64,000 nt of DNA from a virus: positions 8,313-72,312 of IMG/VR virus record IMGVR_UViG_3300028888_000121, one strand, 5' to 3'. The notes under the pieces were generated by a model. The model did not search any database. It saw only the letters and a program-made list of their open reading frames with translations, and was not told where the DNA came from. Positions 2,600 through 32,292 of this stretch are shown one piece after another; within the stretch, counting starts at the first letter, position 1; every line of letters starts with the position of its first letter. The translations under genes and the position numbers were made by a program.

Positions 2600-4171
2600 A
2601 TGATACTTCACGGAGTCGTGCGCTACGACAGCATGCCCATGCCGAGAGCGTACTTCACCCCCGAAGGTTACCTGAAGGACAGGCCGATTCTGACCTCCTG
2701 CGGAATCTTCGAGTATACAAATCCTGACGGGAGCGTCAGGCGGGAGCTCCGGCTTCCGGAGGATGTTTTTTCTCCTGAAAGCCTGAGAAGTTACATCGGA
2801 AAGCCTGTTGTTCTGACTCATGAAGCGGGACTGATTGACAAGAACAACGTGGCTGAAAACCAGATTGGAACGATTCTCAGCGAGGGAGAGCGAAGTGGCA
2901 ATGACGTCAAGGCCGAGATCATCATCCATGACACGGACGCTATGAAGTCTGCTGGGCTGAAAGAGCTGAGTCTTGGATATAACCTCGATTTGGATGAAAC
3001 GCCCGGCGTCTGGAATGGTCAACGCTACGACGCTGTTCAGAAGAACATCCGCATTAACCACCTTGCTCTTGTTCGCGAGGCGCGAGCAGGAGAACAGGCG
3101 CGGCTGAATCTTGACAGCCGCGACCAAGTAAATTTGCTCAAAGGGGGAAAAAGAATGAGCAAGAAAACCAAGCGCGTTCCTCACGCTGATGCCGTTCTTA
3201 CTGACGAAGAGCTGGATAAGGCGCTTGAGGAGTACGACAAGAAGTACGGCAAGACCGAACCCGCTGCCCAGACCGATGCAGACGATGAAGAGGTTGTTAA
3301 AACCGAAGAAGTCGTCGAGCAGCCCGCCCCGTCTGATGACGTGGAAGCAACGGTCGAGGCAGTCAAAGCACGCCGCGACAAGCGCGACGAAGAGGGAGAT
3401 CCGGAAGACGTCGATGCTGCAATGGGCATGATTGCACATCAGGACGAAGACATCCAGACCCTTATTGATCTGGTGGACACCCTCCGTGCCCGTCTGGACA
3501 TGACCAAAGCCGCCAATTCCGACGAGGAAGAAGTCCCGGCTGAGGAAGAGCCCACCGAGGAAGTTCCCGAGGAAGAAGTCCAAGCGGACGAAGTTGACGA
3601 CCTCGAAACCCTGAAAGGCAACGAGGACGCAGACGACGTCGTCGAGGAAGAAATTCCTGAAGACGAAGAGGAAGAGCTTGTGACCGACGCCGACGAGGAC
3701 GAAGAGGTTATCCCCGAAGACGAGGAAAACCTTGACGAGGACGACACCGTGGACGAGGAAGAAGAGGAAGATCTGTTCGCCGAAGACGGCGAGGATTGCG
3801 AAGACTACACCGGCAAGCGTATGAACGCCGATTCGGTGGAGCGTCTGGTCAACATGAAGATCGCCCTCGGCGAACTCGGTGACAGAGTCGGAATCAAGGG
3901 CCTTGCCCGCAAGCCTGTCCGTGATGCAAAAGTCGCTATCATCCGTGCTGCCGGTCTCAAGACCCGTATGGACGGCAAGAGCGACGTCTACGTCAACGAG
4001 GCTTTCAAAGCCGCCCGTGACATCATCAAGTCTCGCAGCCGCAAGACCACTGCGGACCAGAAGAGACAGATGTACAACAAGAAAACTGCACACATGGATT
4101 CTGTTGACGGCGGATCTGCCTTCGAAGCCCGCGAGCGCATGATCGCCAAATACAACAAGGATCGCAAGTAA
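2600..4171 (+). CDS. putative capsid scaffolding/assembly protein, possibly a protease-scaffold fusion, with an extreme Asp/Glu-rich central region
   Basis: 523-aa ORF with AGGAGA RBS and a conserved-looking N-terminal ~180-aa domain. An acidic low-complexity stretch at nt ~3500-3790 is followed by a basic helical C-terminus. It lies directly upstream of the decoration and capsid genes, matching the lambda C/Nu3 position. Confidence 0.5.
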   Translation: MILHGVVRYDSMPMPRAYFTPEGYLKDRPILTSCGIFEYTNPDGSVRRELRLPEDVFSPESLRSYIGKPVVLTHEAGLIDKNNVAENQIGTILSEGERSGNDVKAEIIIHDTDAMKSAGLKELSLGYNLDLDETPGVWNGQRYDAVQKNIRINHLALVREARAGEQARLNLDSRDQVNLLKGGKRMSKKTKRVPHADAVLTDEELDKALEEYDKKYGKTEPAAQTDADDEEVVKTEEVVEQPAPSDDVEATVEAVKARRDKRDEEGDPEDVDAAMGMIAHQDEDIQTLIDLVDTLRARLDMTKAANSDEEEVPAEEEPTEEVPEEEVQADEVDDLETLKGNEDADDVVEEEIPEDEEEELVTDADEDEEVIPEDEENLDEDDTVDEEEEEDLFAEDGEDCEDYTGKRMNADSVERLVNMKIALGELGDRVGIKGLARKPVRDAKVAIIRAAGLKTRMDGKSDVYVNEAFKAARDIIKSRSRKTTADQKRQMYNKKTAHMDSVDGGSAFEARERMIAKYNKDRK

Positions 4172-4191
4172 TTAATAGGGAGGATATCCAA

Positions 4192-4680
4192 ATGAGTGCA
4201 CAGACTGTTTATCGCTTCACTACCCCTGTCGGTCAGGCCGGTGGCATTTACGACCTGGCCCCGTATGAGGTCAACTCTTTCATGAATGAATCTGCTGACG
4301 GTGCTCTGAAGTTCGGCATGGGCGTCGTGCAGGGGGCCCAGCCCGGTAAGGGCATTGCCGTTCCTACTTCCACTGCCACTGCCGCCAAGTTCGAGGGTAT
4401 TGTCACCAACCGCCGCACTTCCGAAAATGCCATGTTCGGCGGCGTCGAGCTGAATCAGCACATCACCGTTGGCGTTATGCGCTATGGCCGTATCTACGGT
4501 CTGCTGGCCGCAAACGAGACTCCGGCTTACGGTGATCCCGTGTATCTGGTCGTCTCCGGCAATGACGCCGGTTGCTTTGCGAAGACCAGCACCAACAACG
4601 TTGCTGTGAAGGGCGTGTTCCTCAGTGGCGCTCAGGACGGCATTGCGCTGATCGAGCTCTTCCACCAGGCTCAGGCGTAA
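4192..4680 (+). CDS. putative head decoration protein
   Basis: 162-aa ORF with GGGAGG RBS, placed between the scaffold and major capsid genes as lambda gpD is. The protein is Gly/Ala/Val-rich and beta-rich. Confidence 0.4.
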   Translation: MSAQTVYRFTTPVGQAGGIYDLAPYEVNSFMNESADGALKFGMGVVQGAQPGKGIAVPTSTATAAKFEGIVTNRRTSENAMFGGVELNQHITVGVMRYGRIYGLLAANETPAYGDPVYLVVSGNDAGCFAKTSTNNVAVKGVFLSGAQDGIALIELFHQAQA

Positions 4681-4709: not shown

Positions 4710-5747
4710 ATGAAAAAGACTCACAACAAGTACGACCGTTTTGAGGCCGCTACCATCAAGCGCTCCGCAATCCCTGCGTCGCTGCTCCAGATCGAAGGCC
4801 TCGCTCGTTTCGACAGCGCAGACGCCGCTTCCATCTGGTTTGCCCGCGAACTTGACTATGTCAAGAGCGAAGCCTACGAAGCCGAATACCCCGAGCTGAT
4901 GGCCTATCAGCTCTTCCCGATCGACACCGAGGCGGATGCTGGTGCAGAAACCATCACCTACTACGTGTACGATAAGGAAGGCACTGCGAAGGTCATTGAC
5001 AACTACAGCACTGACCTTCCCCGTGCTGATGCCTTCGGTAAGCCCAGCACCGCGTATGTGAAGTCCATCGGCGTAAGCTATGGCTACAGCGCTCAGGAAA
5101 TGCGTGCTTCCCGTATGGCCGACAAGCACCTCGATGCCCGCAAGGCTGACAGTGCCCACTACCAGATCGACGCCGAGATCAACCGCATTGCATGGGCTGG
5201 CGATCCCGACCACAACCTGCTTGGTATTCTGTCCGCTGGTCAGAATGTCCCGACCTACACCATCACCGCAGGCGCCACCACCGGCCAGACCTCTTGGCTG
5301 AAAAAGGATGCTGATGAGATCCTTCAGGACCTCATGAACATGTATTCTCAGGTCTCCAAGACCACCAAGAACATCGAGCGTCCGGACACGCTGGTCCTCC
5401 CGACCAACATTCACACCGCCCTGTCCATGAAGCGTGTCGGCGACACCGCCGATACCGTCCTGACCTTCATTCAGCGCAACGCTCCGTGGCTGAAGAAGAT
5501 CGAAATGGCCGCTGAACTGAATGACGACGAAACCAGCACCAACCCCTATGCAGCCGCCTCCAACGGCTCCGGCGTTGCTCTCCTGTACACCAACGACAAG
5601 AAGAAGCTCGCGATCCACAATCCTATGGCCTTCCTTCAGTACCCGGTGCAGGTCCGCAACCTCGAAACGATCGTTCCCTGCGAAGCTCGTACCGCAGGCC
5701 TGATCATTCCTTACCCGATGTCCGCGCTGATTGCGATTGGCGTGTAA
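4710..5747 (+). CDS. major capsid protein, lambda gpE-like in size and position
   Basis: 345-aa ORF with AGGAGG RBS. It follows scaffold plus decoration and is followed by a strong terminator, consistent with a highly expressed gene. Confidence 0.65.
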   Translation: MKKTHNKYDRFEAATIKRSAIPASLLQIEGLARFDSADAASIWFARELDYVKSEAYEAEYPELMAYQLFPIDTEADAGAETITYYVYDKEGTAKVIDNYSTDLPRADAFGKPSTAYVKSIGVSYGYSAQEMRASRMADKHLDARKADSAHYQIDAEINRIAWAGDPDHNLLGILSAGQNVPTYTITAGATTGQTSWLKKDADEILQDLMNMYSQVSKTTKNIERPDTLVLPTNIHTALSMKRVGDTADTVLTFIQRNAPWLKKIEMAAELNDDETSTNPYAAASNGSGVALLYTNDKKKLAIHNPMAFLQYPVQVRNLETIVPCEARTAGLIIPYPMSALIAIGV

Positions 5748-6184: not shown

Positions 6185-6619
6185 ATGACTGCATTCACCG
6201 AAGAGGAATACACGAAGTTAATAACGATGATCAAAACCATCGGCGGCGGAGAGTTCGACTCCATGTCCGAAGAAGATTTGAAGTTCTGGATTGACTTTGT
6301 GCAGCCGATGGTGAGCAGAAAGCAGTTTGGAAACCTTTACTATCAGGCGATTACTCTGATGATCTGCCACAAGCTGAAAATGGCCGGATTCGGTGAAAAC
6401 ACACTCGGCGACCTTGGAAAGATCGGAAACGCCTATGCAGCGTCCAGTGTGTCTGACGGCGGAAGCTCTATCAGCTTTGCAAGCGCCGGTCCGGGCAACC
6501 TGCAGGCGGACGCGGAATACACCATGACGATCTACGGTACGCAATTCCTGCAACTGAGACGCATGGCGATTGTTCCGATCCACGTCTCCGGAGAGGAGAA
6601 CTTCTATGGCAGGGTTTGA
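6185..6619 (+). CDS. putative head-tail connector/adaptor protein
   Basis: 144-aa ORF with AAAGGAGAA RBS. Position follows the capsid genes. Confidence 0.35.
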
Positions 6620-7118
6620 GGCGATCTACAAACAGACAGTAACGCTGTTCAATCGTGTTCCGATAGCTCACGACAGCGGAGAGTTCATCTGGTACCCGAC
6701 TGTGCTGGAAGGTGTGCACCTTGTCACGGACGAGTCCGCATCGTGGAACAACAACGGCGGTATGAAAAACGACAATGTGCGGCTGCATATCCGGTATCTG
6801 GTGTCCGGGACCGACGCGCTGATCAAGTGCAGAAACCCGGGCGAAACAGAGGCTGTGCAGAAGAAGTACTACCTTCCGAAAGAGTACCGGCGTCTGCTGG
6901 CCCCGGAAGAGGCTATCACCTTCCAGTTTGGGAACAAGTACTACGACTTCTTCATAGAGGGCGAGCTTGACGAGGATTTTCCCGTTCCAATCAGTGATGT
7001 GTCCTTTACAAGGCAAGGATTTCTGGACTACATGAACACGCGGTACGACCATGTGTTCGTGATTACGTCAGTATCCCGATACAATCTGATCCCGCATTTC
7101 GAGATCATGGCGAGGTGA
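6606..7118 (+). CDS. putative head closure / neck protein
   Basis: Chosen ATG at 6606 has a GGAGAGGAG RBS. It overlaps the upstream gene end. Confidence 0.35.
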
Positions 7119-25796: not shown

Positions 25797-26798
25797 TTGT
25801 CTGTAGCAAGTAACGTCACGATCGTCACATTCAAACCGGGCAAAAGACACGCGATTGTAGATCCTCCGCTTTGGCAATACGACGTGGGGCAGATTTTGAA
25901 GTTCGGAGACCTTGACCTTCCTTCTGTGTATGAAGTCCAGTTCTCCAACGAACCGTTCAAAGGGAAAGCCAAGCCTCAGATTGGCGGACCGGACGGGGTG
26001 GAGATCCCGAACGAGTATTTTCTGTCCGGCGCTTCGATCCACGCATGGCTGTATCTTCATGTTGGAGCGAATGACGGTGCGGTTGAATACCATGTCGAAA
26101 TCCCGATCAACCGCAAGTCCGAACGCGTCGAAGAGGAATTTACGCCTGTCCAGAGAGACTTTGCGGAACAGACCCTTGCAGCACTCACACAAGTTTCGGC
26201 GGAGGTTACGACCGCGAGAGATGAAACCATCGAGGCCGCAGAAAGTATCCTTGGTGCAGAAGAAAGGGTTGCCGCCCATGCGGATCAGGTAGCCGCAAAC
26301 GCCCAAGCGGCGGCTGAGTCGGAGGTCAATGCGAAAGCCTCGGAAGACGCGGCGAAACTGTCTGAGGACAACGCCAAAGTATCTGAGGACAACGCGAAAG
26401 AGTCCGAAACCAAAGCCAAGGAATACGCGGATGCAGCCAAGGTCTCTGAGGACAACGCGAAAGAGTCGGAAGACAATGCAAAGCTGTCCGAAACGAACGC
26501 GAAGTCTTCTGAGGAAGCCGCGCAGCAGTCACAAGAGACTGCTGCAACCTCGGAATTTCACGCTGTAGCCGCGAGAAATGCGTCAGAAGAAGCGAGAGAC
26601 GCTGCCTATGATGCAAGGGACCAAGCGGCGGACTATGCTGAGGCGGCGCGGCAAGTAGCGACAGAGATGGGATTTGTCAACTTCTACATTGATGAGAACG
26701 GCGACCTGATCATGCTGAAAACCATCAATGTTACGGATATCAACTTTACTCTTGAGGAAGGAGATCTGATTTTTCATGCCTACTATCGAGGAACATGA
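25797..26798 (+). CDS. tail-fibre-associated protein with 8-aa (S-E-D-N-A-K-x-x) tandem repeats
   Basis: TTG start after GGAGGTAGAGGAG. The nt ~26332-26520 region holds about seven imperfect 24-nt repeats encoding (A/V)SEDNAK(E/L). The ORF overlaps the DGR target gene start. Confidence 0.45.
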   Translation: MSVASNVTIVTFKPGKRHAIVDPPLWQYDVGQILKFGDLDLPSVYEVQFSNEPFKGKAKPQIGGPDGVEIPNEYFLSGASIHAWLYLHVGANDGAVEYHVEIPINRKSERVEEEFTPVQRDFAEQTLAALTQVSAEVTTARDETIEAAESILGAEERVAAHADQVAANAQAAAESEVNAKASEDAAKLSEDNAKVSEDNAKESETKAKEYADAAKVSEDNAKESEDNAKLSETNAKSSEEAAQQSQETAATSEFHAVAARNASEEARDAAYDARDQAADYAEAARQVATEMGFVNFYIDENGDLIMLKTINVTDINFTLEEGDLIFHAYYRGT

Positions 26799-29700
26799 CG
26801 GTCTCGTCGATGTAAAAACCAATCTCGGTCATGTCAGCGCCTACGCCATTGCCAAAGCTCACGGTTTTGAGGGGACTGAGGCAGAATGGGAGGCTATGAT
26901 TGCAAACGCCGGTACCTACGGACAGCAGGCTATGGCTTCTCAGGCAGCAGCCGAAACGGCGAAAAATGCAGCAGAAACCGCGCAGGCTGCTGCGGAAGCT
27001 GCGCAGGCGGCAGCGGAAGACGCAAGGGACCGGACCGGCGAAGAACTTGCAAACAAGGTTGACGTTGTCGCCGGTAAAGGACTCAGCAGCAACGACTATA
27101 CCGATGCCGAAAAAGAAAAGCTGGCCGCGATTGAGGAAGGCGCGAACAAGAACGTCACCGTCGACTGGAACGCGACCTACGGCGACGCCTTCATCCGAAA
27201 CAAACCGAGAAATCTGGTCCAAGACGAGAATTACGTCCACACAGACAACAACCTGACGGATGCGCTGCTGGAGAAACTGGAAAACATCGAGGCCGGTGGT
27301 CAGGTGAACGTGCAGGGGGACTGGACCGAGACTGACACCGAGTCCGATGCCTTTATCCGGAACAAGCCCGAAAACCTTGTACAGGATGCCAACTACGTAC
27401 ACACAGACGAGAACTTCACCAGCGCACAGAGACAGAAGCTTCAGAACATTGAAGCCGGTGCCGAAGTCAACGTACAGGCGGACTGGACCGCCGTTTCCGG
27501 CGACGCCGCAATTCTGAATAAACCGGAACATCTTGTCCAGGACGCGGATTATGTGCACACGGACAACAACTACACCACGGAAGAAAAAATGAAGCTTGCC
27601 GGGGTGGAGGCTGGCGCGGAAGTCAATGTGCAGGCTGACTGGGCAGAGACGGACAGCACGAGCGATGCGTTCATTAAGAACAAGCCTCTGACCGACGTAG
27701 ATAACGCTCTCAGTGATACGTCCACTGATCCTGTACAGAATAAGGTCGTCAAGGCGGCTCTGGATGAAAAGGTAGATAAGGTTGCCGGGATGCAGCTCTC
27801 TCAGAACAGCTTCACGAACGGTGAGAAAGAGAAGCTTGCGTCCATTGAAACAGGAGCAACAAACGTTACGGTTGACTCCGCAATCTCGCAGAATTCCGAT
27901 AACCCGGTATCGAGTAAGGCTATCTACACAGAGCTTTCCAAGAAGGTTAATTCAAGCGGATCGAAGCAGCTTTCCGATGAGAATTTCACTTCTGAAGAGA
28001 AAACAAAGCTTGCCGGTATCCAGAACGGCGCTACCAACGTAAGCGTTGATGTTGCAATCACTCAGAACTCCAACAATCCGGTCACGAGTGCGGCAATCTA
28101 CGCGGAGCTTGCGAAGAAGGTTGACGCGGACGGCGGTGCTGGGCTCTCAGACAATAATTTCACCGATGCTTATAAAGAAAAGCTTGATGGAATTGCCTCG
28201 GAAGCTACAAAGACGATTGTAGATGCTACGATCACCGAAAATTCCACGAATCCTGTTACCAGCGCGGCAGTATTTGCAGCACTGGCAACGAAAGTGGATG
28301 CGGACGGTGGAGCCGGACTCTCGGATAACAACTTCACAGACGCATACAAGACAAAGCTGGAAGGAATTGAGGCCGGTGCTAACAAGATCACGGTAGATTC
28401 CGCGACTTCCACGACTTCCACCAATCCGGTGCAGAACAAGGTCATAACCGGAGCTGTCAATACCGAAAATACCAGAGCCACAACGGCAGAGAACGATATC
28501 AAGAACAATCTGATTGCCGTTTCCGATACTCAGCCGACCGCTGCAACTACGAAGCTGTGGGTCAATACGAATTCTGATGAAGACACCGTCATGATTCCGA
28601 CTCTGGAAGATGTGGCGGCTTCTTGGTTTGTGGATTCCGATTACAAGGCCAAGATGAAGAAGTACTTTGAATTGAGCGGCTGCAATGCAATGCAGGATCT
28701 TACCTCCATCTGCGATAAGTGGTACAGAGCGACAAGAACCGGATGGACAGGCGGTGTGAGATTTGCGGTCCCTGCTTCCGGCGCGGCAGCGAACTCAGAC
28801 GGTACAAAAACCGGAGACAATGCCGGACTGACCTGCGTTCCGTCTACCACAGAACAGGCGAATACGGACGATTACAAGAACCTTCCACTGTTTGCCTGTG
28901 TTGACTGCAATGTATATCTGGATGATACCGGAAAGCCGCACATTACCGGCATTGATGGCGTCGGCGGCGTGTTCGAGCGGAACAATCCGGAAAAGATTGT
29001 CGGCGTTCTGCAAATGGCTGGATGGGTGCGGTTCGTCAACAACGGCGAGACCTATGGATGGGACTACACCGATGAAGAGAATGCGAGCGGCTTCCATCCG
29101 TTGAGTGAAGCGGTAGAGCTTGCGGACAACTCGGTCCGAAGTTGGGTTGTGCATGGCAAGTACAACTTTGGCGAGAACTGGACCTGCTGTTCCGGCGTCA
29201 AAACAAAGGTTTGGAATGTGTCCCACAACACACAGCTTTCCGGCGTTCGGACCCAGTGGGGAACAAGGTACTGCGGCGCAACGAGCGCGGATGACGCATG
29301 GCTCAAACTGATGCTTTATCTCAAATATGGTCAGCTCGATTCCGACCGTATTCTCCACGGCTGCAATAACTACAACTATGAGTACCAGCCTGCCCTTGCC
29401 GAAACCGGAGTGGAAAGAATCCTTCTCACGACCGCGCAGGCCGCGAACCTGATTGTCGGTTCAACGATTGTCCTTGCAGCATCGAAACGTGCTCAGAGCA
29501 ACGTTCTGGACCGCGTGAGAATCACGGAAATCCGGACAGTCGAAGTAGATGGGGCTTCTTACGGCGCTGTTTATGTGGACAATGGCGGCACCACGTTTGA
29601 TACGACAACGGAAATGTGGCTGTCTACCATGCAGTGGTATACCGGCAGCACGGACGACGTCCTCGGCAATGACGGCGGTATCGATCCCGCCTCGGATAAG

Positions 29701-30183
29701 TACCCGGTCAAGCTTCAAGGAATTGAATACATGGTCGGATGCTACGAGGCGATGGGAGATACCATGCTGATCTACGGTGCCAACAACGGAGTGAACTGCT
29801 GCACGCCTTGGGTATGCAGAGATGCCACAAAACTGTCTACGAGCAAGACGAGCGATTATGTGAGCTGCGGTCTTGGCATTCCGACACCGGCCTCTGCTGC
29901 GTGGCAGTATCCGAAACAGATGCACGGAGACAATGACCTGCCAGAACTGATCTTCCCAGTAGATAACGGCGGAAGCACCTCCGGTGGCCCACGCGATGGT
30001 TTTTACACGCTTGCCAATACGAGCGGCACCTATGAGTGGCTGCGCCTCGGCCGCCTGTACTACGGCGTCGGGGATGCTGGGTTGTCGTGCGGTCTCGGTG
30101 GCTGCGGCCTCGCGTACGCGTACTGGAGCATCGGCGGGCGGCTTTCTGTAACCGGTAATAGGGGTGAATTCCAAGCGGCCTAA
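26776..30183 (+). CDS. DGR target protein: 1135-aa tail fibre/receptor-binding protein with a C-terminal variable region
   Basis: AGGAAGGAGA RBS. The N-terminal part has two families of ~50-aa tandem repeats. The C-terminal 36 codons (nt 30036-30141) form the VR cognate of the downstream template repeat. Positions that are AAC/AAT codons in the TR are diversified here. Confidence 0.85.
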   Translation: MPTIEEHDGLVDVKTNLGHVSAYAIAKAHGFEGTEAEWEAMIANAGTYGQQAMASQAAAETAKNAAETAQAAAEAAQAAAEDARDRTGEELANKVDVVAGKGLSSNDYTDAEKEKLAAIEEGANKNVTVDWNATYGDAFIRNKPRNLVQDENYVHTDNNLTDALLEKLENIEAGGQVNVQGDWTETDTESDAFIRNKPENLVQDANYVHTDENFTSAQRQKLQNIEAGAEVNVQADWTAVSGDAAILNKPEHLVQDADYVHTDNNYTTEEKMKLAGVEAGAEVNVQADWAETDSTSDAFIKNKPLTDVDNALSDTSTDPVQNKVVKAALDEKVDKVAGMQLSQNSFTNGEKEKLASIETGATNVTVDSAISQNSDNPVSSKAIYTELSKKVNSSGSKQLSDENFTSEEKTKLAGIQNGATNVSVDVAITQNSNNPVTSAAIYAELAKKVDADGGAGLSDNNFTDAYKEKLDGIASEATKTIVDATITENSTNPVTSAAVFAALATKVDADGGAGLSDNNFTDAYKTKLEGIEAGANKITVDSATSTTSTNPVQNKVITGAVNTENTRATTAENDIKNNLIAVSDTQPTAATTKLWVNTNSDEDTVMIPTLEDVAASWFVDSDYKAKMKKYFELSGCNAMQDLTSICDKWYRATRTGWTGGVRFAVPASGAAANSDGTKTGDNAGLTCVPSTTEQANTDDYKNLPLFACVDCNVYLDDTGKPHITGIDGVGGVFERNNPEKIVGVLQMAGWVRFVNNGETYGWDYTDEENASGFHPLSEAVELADNSVRSWVVHGKYNFGENWTCCSGVKTKVWNVSHNTQLSGVRTQWGTRYCGATSADDAWLKLMLYLKYGQLDSDRILHGCNNYNYEYQPALAETGVERILLTTAQAANLIVGSTIVLAASKRAQSNVLDRVRITEIRTVEVDGASYGAVYVDNGGTTFDTTTEMWLSTMQWYTGSTDDVLGNDGGIDPASDKYPVKLQGIEYMVGCYEAMGDTMLIYGANNGVNCCTPWVCRDATKLSTSKTSDYVSCGLGIPTPASAAWQYPKQMHGDNDLPELIFPVDNGGSTSGGPRDGFYTLANTSGTYEWLRLGRLYYGVGDAGLSCGLGGCGLAYAYWSIGGRLSVTGNRGEFQAA
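30036..30141 (+). repeat. DGR variable repeat (VR)
   Basis: The 106 nt are collinear with TR segment 1 (30261-30324) plus TR segment 2 (30518-30559). There are 15 mismatches and every one falls on an adenine of the TR. The 3' end is the GC run GGCGGGCGG. Confidence 0.85.
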
Positions 30184-30195
30184 GACGCTTGGAAG

Positions 30196-30212
30196 AGGGG
30201 ACTTTGTCCCCT
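30196..30212 (+). promoter_or_regulatory. GC-rich hairpin downstream of VR (candidate DGR homing-associated hairpin, or a transcription terminator)
   Basis: aggggac-ttt-gtcccct forms a 7-bp G/C-rich stem 55 nt after the VR end and 13 nt after the target stop codon. Confidence 0.45.
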
Positions 30213-30260
30213 TATAAAACAATAACAAATTGGGATGGATTGTGCATCCGCTGGTGCCCG

Positions 30261-30324
30261 GTGGCTGCGCCTCGGCAACCTGAACAACGGCGTCGGGAAT
30301 GCTGGGTTGTCGTGCGGTAACGGT
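30261..30324 (+). repeat. DGR template repeat, 5' segment (TR-a)
   Basis: 64 nt matching VR 30036-30099 with 7 mismatches, all at TR adenines. In VR phase it reads W L R L G N L N N G V G N A G L S C G N G. Confidence 0.85.
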
Positions 30325-30517
30325 AAGCAAATTGCCCCTTCATATGGCGACATATGATTGAACTTCGAATAACGGGGGAAGCCTAAATCTTGAAAAAGAC
30401 AAGGTAATCCCGTGGCGTCAACTATGAAAATAGAACGCCCGAACGACTGACAAGAAGCATCTCTTTTGTGGAGATGATGATACAGTCTACTCCATGCGGA
30501 AACGTATGGTAATCAGG
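30325..30517 (+). other. 193-nt intervening sequence splitting the DGR template repeat; candidate self-splicing (group-I-like) intron or other excisable structured RNA
   Basis: It has no counterpart in VR. The flanks join exactly between codons (ggt|aac) and together reconstitute a continuous 106-nt TR. The 5' exon ends in U and the insertion ends in G. Two GNRA-capped hairpins are present: catatg-GCGA-catatg (30341-30356) and ccatgcg-GAAA-cgtatgg (30492-30509). There is no ORF, and stops occur in the TR frame. Confidence 0.45.
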
Positions 30518-30559
30518 AACAACGGCCTCACGAACGCGAACTGGAACATCGGCGGGCGG
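30518..30559 (+). repeat. DGR template repeat, 3' segment (TR-b)
   Basis: 42 nt matching VR 30100-30141 with 8 mismatches, all at TR adenines. It reads N N G L T N A N W N I G G R. It shares the GGCGGGCGG 3' end with VR, after which the sequences diverge. Confidence 0.85.
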
Positions 30560-30787
30560 ATTTTTAGAATGATTTTGACACGAATTTGATGAGAGGCGAT
30601 ATGCCTCAAGCACAATTATTCCCACGCTGCGGCGAAAATGTGTCGTTCCGGCACCGGGGGCAGTTATGAGATTTGAAACTGATCCCCGGGTGTATGACGA
30701 ATAAGGTCATGCACGGGCTTAGTAGAAAAACCGAAAGGCCCTGAGATTCAAAAAGATTCTTTGCCATTGGAGGGATAGACCTTAAAC

Positions 30788-31975
30788 ATGAAAACGTACT
30801 GCAAAAAGGTAGATCCCTCTGATGTTTCTACGATTGAACCGTTTATTTATGATGCTTTGTATTCCAAGCTTGGCCGCAAAGACTATTCTGACTTTGTTTC
30901 AAGATACTGCGACATGCGCCCGAAAGAGATTCGAAAAAAGAAGCATGAAGGTATCGCGCACTATCCGGAACTGGAAAAGGCGGTCAGAAACATTGCGCTG
31001 GATATATCTTTGAGGATCAGGCAGCGGTCATTGGATTTGGAGCCTATACGGTTTTCTGTGCGCACGGATGGCCTGAGCAAGAAAACGAGAATTATAGGCA
31101 TTGAGAGCGTGATACAGCAGATCATTGAACATGTTGCTGTCGGCTGCATGACTGAGCTTTGGAAAGCAAAGTATGAGTATCACCAGTATGCAAGTATCAA
31201 AGGGAAGGGTCAACTAAAGGGCGCAAGGGCAATACAGAGATGGACAGAAGAGGGCAAGACAAAATACTTCGTAAAGTTGGATGTGAGAAAGTGCTTCCAA
31301 AGCCTGAGCCGCGAAACTGCGATGCGCTGGCTTAAAAGAGATATTGGGAAAAACGGTCAAATGCTTTGGCTTGTGGACTCTCTCTTGACAATGCACGGAG
31401 AAGGTCTTGTGATCGGAAGTCTTCTGTCACAGTTCTTATGCAACTATTTTATGAGTTATGCGTATCGGTATGTGATGTCGCTTTCAAAAGAAAGACGGGG
31501 TAAGAAAATTAATATGGTTTCCTGTGCTCTGTTCTATATGGATGACATATTGCTGTGCAGCAATGACCGAAGAAATCTCGTCATGGCGGTAAGAAAACTG
31601 ATCGCCTATATGAAGAAAAGTTTTGGACTGGACATCAAACCAGAATGGCATGTCAAGCGTCATGTGGACTGCGGCATTGATATGATGGGGTATGTGATCA
31701 AGTATAACGGCAAACTGAGAATACGTCCCAGAGTGTTCATACGGGCCCGCAGAGCTTTCGTGCGGTCTGCAGAAGGTGATAACTCAATCAAGATTCAAAC
31801 TCGCGTAGCGTCTTATTACGGCTTCTTCAAAGCGGCAAGGATTATGAAGCTGAGGACGGTACATTTTATTCCGAAAACCGGAAAGAGACGAACAGTCAAC
31901 GTCCGGGCAATGCAGAAGAAATCAGCTATACTGACAGGTGCAGAAGCAAGGAGGGAAATGGAATGCGCTGCATAA
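30788..31975 (+). CDS. DGR reverse transcriptase
   Basis: 395-aa ORF with the catalytic YMDD motif (LFYMDDILL) and the DGR-characteristic (I/L)GxxxSQ motif (VIGSLLSQFLCNYF). It begins 228 nt downstream of the TR. Confidence 0.9.
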   Translation: MKTYCKKVDPSDVSTIEPFIYDALYSKLGRKDYSDFVSRYCDMRPKEIRKKKHEGIAHYPELEKAVRNIALDISLRIRQRSLDLEPIRFSVRTDGLSKKTRIIGIESVIQQIIEHVAVGCMTELWKAKYEYHQYASIKGKGQLKGARAIQRWTEEGKTKYFVKLDVRKCFQSLSRETAMRWLKRDIGKNGQMLWLVDSLLTMHGEGLVIGSLLSQFLCNYFMSYAYRYVMSLSKERRGKKINMVSCALFYMDDILLCSNDRRNLVMAVRKLIAYMKKSFGLDIKPEWHVKRHVDCGIDMMGYVIKYNGKLRIRPRVFIRARRAFVRSAEGDNSIKIQTRVASYYGFFKAARIMKLRTVHFIPKTGKRRTVNVRAMQKKSAILTGAEARREMECAA

Positions 31976-32292
31976 GTGTATCTGCTGAGAAGCAGAAAGA
32001 TGTTGAAGTAAATATCTTTGATGGAACTGCGCACATCTATCTCAGAACCGGTCATGTAGAAAAGACCGGCGAAGGTGAAGGCTCTGAGGGCGGAAACTAC
32101 TGGGAATGCGAAGAGGCATATATGACCTGCGATGCGGATGACGCTCCGGCAATTGATGAGATCGGAGAAGCGTTTGACGCGTGGTTTGGTTATGTGTCTG
32201 ACTGGCAGGCACCGAAAGAGAAGACCCTGAAAGAGCTTCAGGCAGATATCGAATATATAGCGGCAATGTCCGGTATTGATTTGGAGGTGTAA
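31963..32292 (+). CDS. hypothetical acidic protein overlapping the RT 3' end
   Basis: 109-aa ORF rich in Asp/Glu. It is not Avd-like, since Avd proteins are basic. Confidence 0.35.
   Translation: MRCISVSAEKQKDVEVNIFDGTAHIYLRTGHVEKTGEGEGSEGGNYWECEEAYMTCDADDAPAIDEIGEAFDAWFGYVSDWQAPKEKTLKELQADIEYIAAMSGIDLEV

Follow-up and report, generated by a model that had tools for sequence, protein, structure and literature searches.

A putative group I intron within the template repeat of an apparently active phage DGR

Can a DGR, a protein-diversifying retroelement, still operate when its template repeat (TR) is interrupted by a structured insert that its variable copy, the VR, lacks? The question is raised by a locus in the 64,000 nt stretch of phage DNA analysed here (the window). 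A first-pass annotation of the window noted a TR split by 193 nt, tentatively called the insert a group I intron, and left open whether the insert is spliced from the template RNA or has recently inactivated the DGR. We favour the view, with a probability of about 0.88, that 30325-30517 is a group I intron in the TR of an active phage DGR and that it is spliced out before reverse transcription; the splicing is deduced from the sequence comparisons presented below.

A split template and its intronless sisters

The VR aligns without gaps to two TR pieces of 64 and 42 nt, and all 15 mismatches in the window fall at TR adenines (15 of 22 adenines; Table 1), so that both the 106 nt sum and the adenine pattern that had been read from the letters are reproduced. 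The pieces join between codons (GGT/AAC), and the ligated TR translates as WLRLGNLNNGVGNAGLSCGNGNNGLTNANWNIGG. Its junction, with unmutated adenines, is CGGTAACGGT/AACAACGGCC, which would set TR RNA apart from VR mRNA. The 193 nt insert has no VR counterpart, and the TR frame that runs into it meets a TGA after 10 codons (ORF 30235-30357). The first-pass description of the locus was thus correct in every detail, including the join between codons and the stops inside the insert.

Table 1. Features of the DGR locus and predicted helices of the insert, in window coordinates
Feature	Position	Strand	Description
DGR target gene	26776-30183	+	ORF, 1135 aa, VR at 3' end
VR	30036-30141	+	106 nt, uninterrupted, from TR alignment
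9-bp hairpin	30169-30194	+	TTCCAAGCG/CGCTTGGAA; spans target stop codon, 28 nt after VR; read from the sequence
TR exon 1	30261-30324	+	64 nt, ends GGU; U30324 is the proposed 5' splice-site U
Putative group I intron	30325-30517	+	193 nt, without an ORF
Predicted P1	30322-30326/30332-30336	+	exon GGU and intron AA with UUGCC; U30324-G30334 wobble at cleavage site
Predicted P2	30341-30346/30351-30356	+	catatg-GCGA-catatg, loop GCGA
Predicted P3	30363-30366/30454-30457	+	CUUC/GAAG
Predicted P4	30372-30377/30408-30413	+	ACGGGG/UCCCGU
Predicted P5	30382-30383/30403-30404	+	encloses P5a, 30388-30391/30396-30399, UCUU-GAAA-AAGA
Predicted P6	30414-30418/30435-30439	+	with P6a, 30422-30425/30430-30433, CUAU-GAAA-AUAG
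Predicted P7	30445-30449/30483-30487	+	GACUG/CAGUC, pseudoknot with P3
Predicted P8	30458-30463/30471-30476	+	
Predicted P9	30492-30498/30503-30509	+	ccatgcg-GAAA-cgtatgg, loop GAAA
Terminal G	30517	+	last intron base
TR exon 2	30518-30559	+	42 nt, ends in GC-rich TCGGCGGGCGG, common to VR 3' end
TR-RT spacer	30560-30787	+	conserved in intronless relatives
DGR reverse transcriptase (RT)	30788-31975	+	395 aa; Pfam RVT_1, E 5e-15; IGSLLSQ and YMDD motifs

The remainder of the locus is that of a DGR. The RT has 390 homologues at E <= 1e-30 and carries an SQ motif that we take to be DGR-typical. No avd-like ORF lies between VR and RT (30142-30787); an acidic 109-aa ORF at 31963-32292, with no Pfam match, overlaps the end of the RT. 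The target protein matched no Pfam family. The N-terminal half of its gene (26776-28500) encodes repeated units of about 40 aa, …DAFIRNKPxNLVQDxNYVHTDxNxT… and …NPVxSxAIYxELxKKVD…, typical of fibre-like proteins. The hairpin at the target stop codon is followed by GGGGAC-TTT-GTCCCC and a T/A-rich run (30169-30211), an arrangement that may serve in DGR target recognition, as a terminator, or in both ways; a terminator scan did not return it, and the promoter and terminator scans together were uninformative. A further hairpin, GGATG-N7-CATCC at 30233-30249, lies directly upstream of the TR, has arms partly conserved in intronless relatives, and may be part of a 5' element of the DGR RNA. By analogy with the Bordetella phage system, from which the priming role is taken (PMC5703328, PMC6182149), the TR-RT spacer is presumed to form the 3' part of the template RNA and to be the site of cDNA priming.

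The true TR might lie elsewhere, as the first-pass annotation recognized. A junction-spanning pattern matched only the VR in the window, which holds no uninterrupted TR copy (0 matches in 100 shuffles), and the exact uninterrupted GGT/AAC TR junction had a single, unrelated match in IMG/VR, a collection that includes the 146-kb genome of locus L001. A second template elsewhere was rejected on these grounds.

The ends of the insert are fixed by comparison with related DGRs. A scan of IMG/VR with the RT protein gave 26 related loci, and 12 relatives, with RTs 61-84% identical, have an uninterrupted TR, ...GGCAACGGC/AACAACGG... (GGC/AAC), from which the window's 193 nt are absent. Comparison with these contiguous TRs, the one that had been proposed for the locus, confirms the insertion point to the base. 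The TR and VR of these intronless sisters are also 106 nt long and mismatched only at adenines. In one of them (L007, 1514-1616) the VR is 103 nt against a TR of 106 nt, owing to a 3-nt deletion in the VR. In another, L011 (IMGVR_UViG_3300032038_000713), the copy at the TR position (3686-3792) differs from that of its near-twin L010 (3686-3792) only at L010's TR adenines. The L011 template itself thus looks adenine-mutagenised, which could reflect retrohoming into the TR or a VR/TR read swap in assembly. A protein search with the spliced TR ORF returned only TR ORFs of intronless relatives.

Insert and 3' exon both start with AA, so that three placements of the boundary give the same ligated product; among them, only 30325-30517 has both U at position -1 and a 3' G. 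Position 30324 is C in all 12 intronless relatives and T in both TR and VR of the intron-bearing clade. A further change of GGC to GGT lies 7 nt upstream and takes no part in P1, and we therefore do not claim the U at -1 as an adaptation to the intron; it may be lineage drift.

Identity and kin of the insert

Rfam's model of group I introns, RF00028, aligns in its entirety (model 1-253) to 30315-30509 of the + strand, with 37.2 bits (E = 1.1e-7 in a 1-kb scan; 6.8e-6 in the 64-kb window against all 4,227 families). This is below the gathering score of 50, and a default Rfam scan consequently lists nothing. The intron lineage evidently scores poorly against RF00028, since L176, a clear homologue, reaches just 21.9 bits when scanned alone; a joint scan of L176, L172 and L127 gave no match, probably a filter effect. 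Group II, hammerhead and twister ribozymes were rejected, as none had an Rfam match at E <= 10 in the 1-kb scan. The Rfam comparison suggested at the outset thus returned group I, full-length and on the correct strand, and no other ribozyme family.

Homologues of the insert were retrieved by two degenerate core patterns. In a Lysinibacillus prophage (L176), an intron 67% identical to that of the window splits a tape-measure-like ORF after ...ACUGGU, and in L172 (identical to L179) an intron splits a gene after ...GYNP; the L172 host gene is cut after ...IGYNP, possibly an RNR-like NPC motif. The match in L127 ends at the contig end, and L184, L185, L187 and L188 hold more distant homologues. 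An HNH-type endonuclease ORF occupies the P6 loop in L187 (about 6350-6900) and L188 (about 1700-2700), and the L188 intron breaks a Walker-A-like GAGPG/K motif. L185 and L188 have two extra hairpins at the place of P7.1/P7.2 in subgroup IA introns, whereas the window intron has neither such hairpins nor an ORF. The L185 contig (IMGVR_UViG_3300021387_000828) is from the same sample as L001 and has three intron-model matches within about 1.2 kb (3697-3952, 4047-4276 and 4751-4888), one gene there appearing to hold several group I introns; the 3' end of the first is nearly identical to P9 of the Lysinibacillus prophage intron.

These phage introns (L176, L172, L185, L187, L188 and a gap in Enterocloster phage CB457P1) share with the window the core sequences GGUAAUCCCG, GACUGACAAG and GAUACAGUC, the P1-P9 architecture, an insertion site preceded by GGU or CGU, and an L9 loop, GAAA, whose receptor lies in P5. 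The L9 loop co-occurs with the 11-nt-receptor motif, which is canonical (CCUAAG..UAUGG) in L176, L187 and L188 and variant (CCUAAA..CAAGG) in the window intron; L172 has neither loop nor receptor. Searched alone against a phage GenBank collection, the intron gave short core matches only, the best in Enterocloster phages. In CB457P1 (L196 1388-1821; OP172753.1 56903-57336) two CDS labelled 'hypothetical protein' are separated by 435 nt that carry no annotation and in which the intron model has a P4-P6 match of 30 bits; in five cultured Enterocloster phages a single gene is probably split here by a group I intron that the annotation lacks. A distant BLAST of 29900-32000 against the phage GenBank collection found no match, and a pattern scan of JGI metagenomes found two, both by chance in coding sequence. 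A loose IMG/VR pattern had at least 119 matches, nearly all chance, L127 being the one real case.

A complete group I secondary structure, with P1-P9, the P3/P7 pseudoknot and a terminal G, can be written for 30325-30517 (Table 1), and the minimum free energy of the insert is -59.6 kcal/mol (z = -4.9 against dinucleotide shuffles). The two GNRA hairpins that had first drawn attention to the insert are real and correspond to P2 (30341-30356) and P9 (30492-30509), and the U before the insert and the G at its end are both present. The first-pass annotation had seen no convincing P1 or P7; both are there, as GGU+AA/UUGCC and GACUG/CAGUC. The proposed G-binding pair is G30445-C30487, with C30444 bulged and A30443-U30488 pairable, which is consensus-like by inspection only.

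The fold was then compared across an alignment of five sequences made with MAFFT (the window intron, two clade variants, L176 and L172). RNAalifold independently returned P1, P2, P4, P5, P6/P6a, P7, P8 and P9, with compensatory changes in 19 of 57 predicted pairs. When the hand-drawn structure was counted on the same alignment, with P3 added by hand and P7 written as a pseudoknot, 94.8% of cells paired, against 34-44% with partners slid by 1-3 columns. Both sides had changed in 16 of 46 pairs, against 0-4 in the slid controls, and none of 500 shuffles reached the observed values. Individual helices are 87-100% paired over the five sequences, with compensatory changes in P3, P4, P6 and P8 and an invariant P7. 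MAFFT misaligns parts of L172, and the effect is to reduce these pairing figures, not to inflate them. The U-G pair at the 5' splice site is present in all five sequences; the intron-side P1 pair beside the wobble changes from A-U to U-A in L176, and the guide of L172, GCGG, pairs with its exon CCGU when re-aligned by hand.

A covariance model (R1) built from this alignment scored 198 bits in L176, 134 in L172, 58 in L185, 49 in L188 and 36 in L127. It found exactly one copy in the window and no intron in 24 other DGR loci (L003-L026). The intron has a G+C content of 43.5%, against 54% in the target gene, which fits a foreign origin. With the full-length model match, P1 and P7, the RNAalifold fold and covariation with phage introns, what had been a tentative assignment is now well founded, and we consider the 193 nt insert to be a compact, ORF-less group I intron.

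Its P1 has only three exon base pairs and its P10 at most two, and splicing may accordingly be inefficient or helper-dependent. A reading that builds on this is that the intron does leave the RNA in vivo but relies on a phage or host maturase or chaperone, or on particular conditions, and so gates DGR activity; the degenerate P5 receptor agrees with it. The core is nevertheless complete, has four GNRA loops for tertiary contacts, and folds strongly. The Azoarcus tRNA-Ile intron, a compact bacterial tRNA group I intron of about 205 nt, also has a 3-bp P1, yet self-splices. The window intron resembles it in very small size, in the 3-bp exon-guide P1 and in GNRA tetraloops for tertiary contacts, a likeness of architecture and not of compared sequence, and the genomic contexts differ. 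We regard dependence on a helper or on special conditions as possible but unlikely.

Diversification with the intron in place

The clade was defined as contigs encoding the window RT or its cluster mates at >=90%, together with L001 from the IMG/VR scan. In 23 of 23 clade loci that reach the TR, the intron is found at the same site, as 193 nt or as a 192-nt variant. The loci come from many samples and assemblers, and an assembly artefact was rejected because SPAdes-style NODE_, MEGAHIT-style k141_ and Logan contigs from different samples have the same structure. The lineage appears in about 20 contigs; these come from several independent assemblies, and the labels of the samples point to rumen studies. 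A rumen origin and a Lachnospiraceae-type host are our guess from these labels, one annotated homologue and the Enterocloster phage matches.

The 20 loci with complete VR and TR contain 16 VR alleles against 2 TR sequences. All 22 TR-adenine positions vary, and only three VR/TR mismatches lie at non-A sites. Each VR allele carries mutations both before and after the junction, and all 16 have exactly the length of the ligated exons, without heterogeneity at the junction; no VR among those examined contains the unspliced insert with its stop codons. Five loci from different samples (L031, L032, L034, L035 and L036) have no differences over about 4,700 non-VR nt, intron included, but differ from each other by 10-16 positions in the 106-nt VR, at TR adenines on both sides of the junction. 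Similarly, L030 and the window are distinguished by just 2 of 6,682 nt, and each of these is a VR adenine site. Near-identical intron-bearing genomes with different adenine-mutagenised VRs indicate, at the level of population sequence, that the DGR is active with the intron in place, and contradict the suggestion that a recent insertion had inactivated it.

The history of the intron is consistent with this. Intron variants (C/T at position 4, an A deletion at 69, and positions 134 and 141) co-segregate with flanking haplotypes, so that the intron appears to have been inherited with its surroundings. The TR of L048 has three private changes in exon 1 (30271 C>T, 30280 C>T and 30306 G>A), and the same three are found in the L048 VR. 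Between the window and L048, differences number 274/2094 in the target gene, 166/1188 in the RT, 76/625 in downstream genes, 13/119 in the VR-TR spacer and 13/228 in the TR-RT spacer, compared with 3/106 in the TR and 3/193 in the intron. Seven intron sites are polymorphic in the clade, and all the changes preserve structure: three fall in loops, three create G-U pairs (two A>G in P2, one C>U in P8), and the remaining one converts GCGA to GUGA, still a GNRA loop. The low divergence of the intron fits selection for splicing competence, although it could instead reflect a recent conversion tract or lateral spread.

That last possibility is central to an account in which the insertion killed the DGR, the VR diversity predates the intron, and the intron spread later, by recombination or homing, into phages with different VRs. 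A conversion tract could leave the intron and adjacent TR far less diverged than their flanks, and relatives of the intron carry homing-endonuclease ORFs. The window intron, however, has no ORF and no endonuclease gene nearby, and each of the five genomes that are identical outside the VR would need its own crossover within the 183 nt between VR and intron. The co-segregation of intron sub-variants with flanking haplotypes and the agreement of the L048 VR with its own altered TR also argue against a DGR that was dead on arrival of the intron, and we consider this history highly improbable.

If the DGR is active, in what form is its template copied? Priming of cDNA synthesis takes place downstream of the TR in the Bordetella phage system (PMC5703328). 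If the same is true of the window, only a cDNA that has crossed the junction can bring exon-1 sequence to the VR, and the template must then have lacked the intron. Judging from the VR alleles, we think that the cDNA template must have been ligated-exon RNA. The same product could arise if nothing were spliced and the RT, on reaching the 5' end of exon 2, jumped to the 3' end of exon 1, the two being brought together by the folded insert. The splice sites are close together in a folded group I RNA, and a spliced template and a precise jump are indistinguishable by sequence alone. A jump would, however, have to be exact in 16 of 16 VR alleles; it would leave the complete catalytic core, the U-G pair and the terminal G, all kept under constraint, to be accounted for; and homologues of the intron lie in protein-coding genes, where only true splicing restores the frame. 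We therefore give template jumping very little credence and retain splicing as the preferred explanation.

Proposed mechanism and relation to known systems

In the mechanism that we propose, the TR would be transcribed as exon 1, intron, exon 2 and spacer. P1 would form between exon GGU and the guide GCC and place a U-G wobble at the cleavage site, while P3-P9 formed the core. Two transesterifications, an attack by guanosine after U30324 and then the joining of the exons after G30517, would yield a continuous 106-nt TR RNA with its downstream spacer. The RT would copy this ligated RNA with adenine-specific errors, and the cDNA would replace the VR in the target gene. Unspliced RNA would be unproductive, as it would place 193 nt and stop codons in the target. 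The splicing chemistry, its autocatalysis and its timing before reverse transcription are inferred from established group I chemistry and from the Bordetella phage DGR (PMC5703328, PMC6182149).

How the intron entered the TR is a matter of speculation. Reverse splicing into TR RNA is attractive in that this is the phage's one RNA that is routinely copied back to DNA, but an origin by reverse splicing and DGR reverse transcription is unlikely, since adenine mutagenesis would have scrambled the intron's 66 adenines.

Use of the td intron as a tag in the BPP-1 TR reportedly began with Guo et al. in 2008. The T4 td group I intron engineered into the BPP-1 TR was spliced from TR RNA and the ligated exons were reverse-transcribed (Naorem et al. 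2017, PMC5703328), an experiment used to show that information passes through RNA (PMC5703328). The td construct is artificial and leaves a 36-nt exon tag, whereas the window intron is natural and leaves no tag. It comes from another, much smaller intron lineage, has co-diverged with its DGR, and has reached fixation in a phage lineage known from many samples. The window DGR agrees with BPP-1-type DGRs and the 12 intronless sisters (L003-L016) in several respects: its RT has IGSLLSQ, its TR and VR both measure 106 nt and are mismatched only at adenines, and a large structural gene carries the VR at its 3' end. It differs from them in its ribozyme-split TR and in having no avd-like ORF between VR and RT. 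The T4 td and nrdB introns and those of Staphylococcus phage Twort are phage group I introns in protein-coding genes. The host of the window intron is instead a non-coding retroelement template with nothing translated across the junction, and a failure of splicing would cost hypervariation and not a protein.

The first-pass annotation knew of no DGR template with an intron-like insert. In the literature that we searched, including the DGR surveys PMC5758913 and PMC8144416, we likewise found no natural intron-interrupted TR, which is absence of evidence only, and the engineered td tag was the sole case. As far as this literature shows, the locus nests two ordinary elements, a DGR and a phage group I intron of very small size, in a way not previously reported. 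With its 193 nt, the intron ranks with the smallest complete group I introns. To repeat-based DGR finders the TR would look like a pair of short repeats, 64 and 42 nt long, and split templates may for this reason be under-reported.

Whether the intron is a maintained working part, a ribozyme gate through which every template RNA passes, and not just a tolerated parasite, is a further question, and we hold the first alternative to be rather doubtful. Were it true, diversification would be coupled to the folding of the ribozyme or to the supply of guanosine, and neither unprocessed nor read-through RNA could act as template. The intron offers a built-in experimental handle, as mutants of the splice sites or of the G-site should turn the DGR off.

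The lineage is a common one, to judge from its recurrence in independent assemblies, and it appears to be a natural counterpart of the td-intron experiment that demonstrated the RNA intermediate in DGR retrohoming: the phage population itself indicates that the information written into the VR went through a processed RNA. It would make a protein-diversifying retroelement dependent on a ribozyme, a natural nesting of these two classes of RNA-based element that was not previously known in the literature searched.
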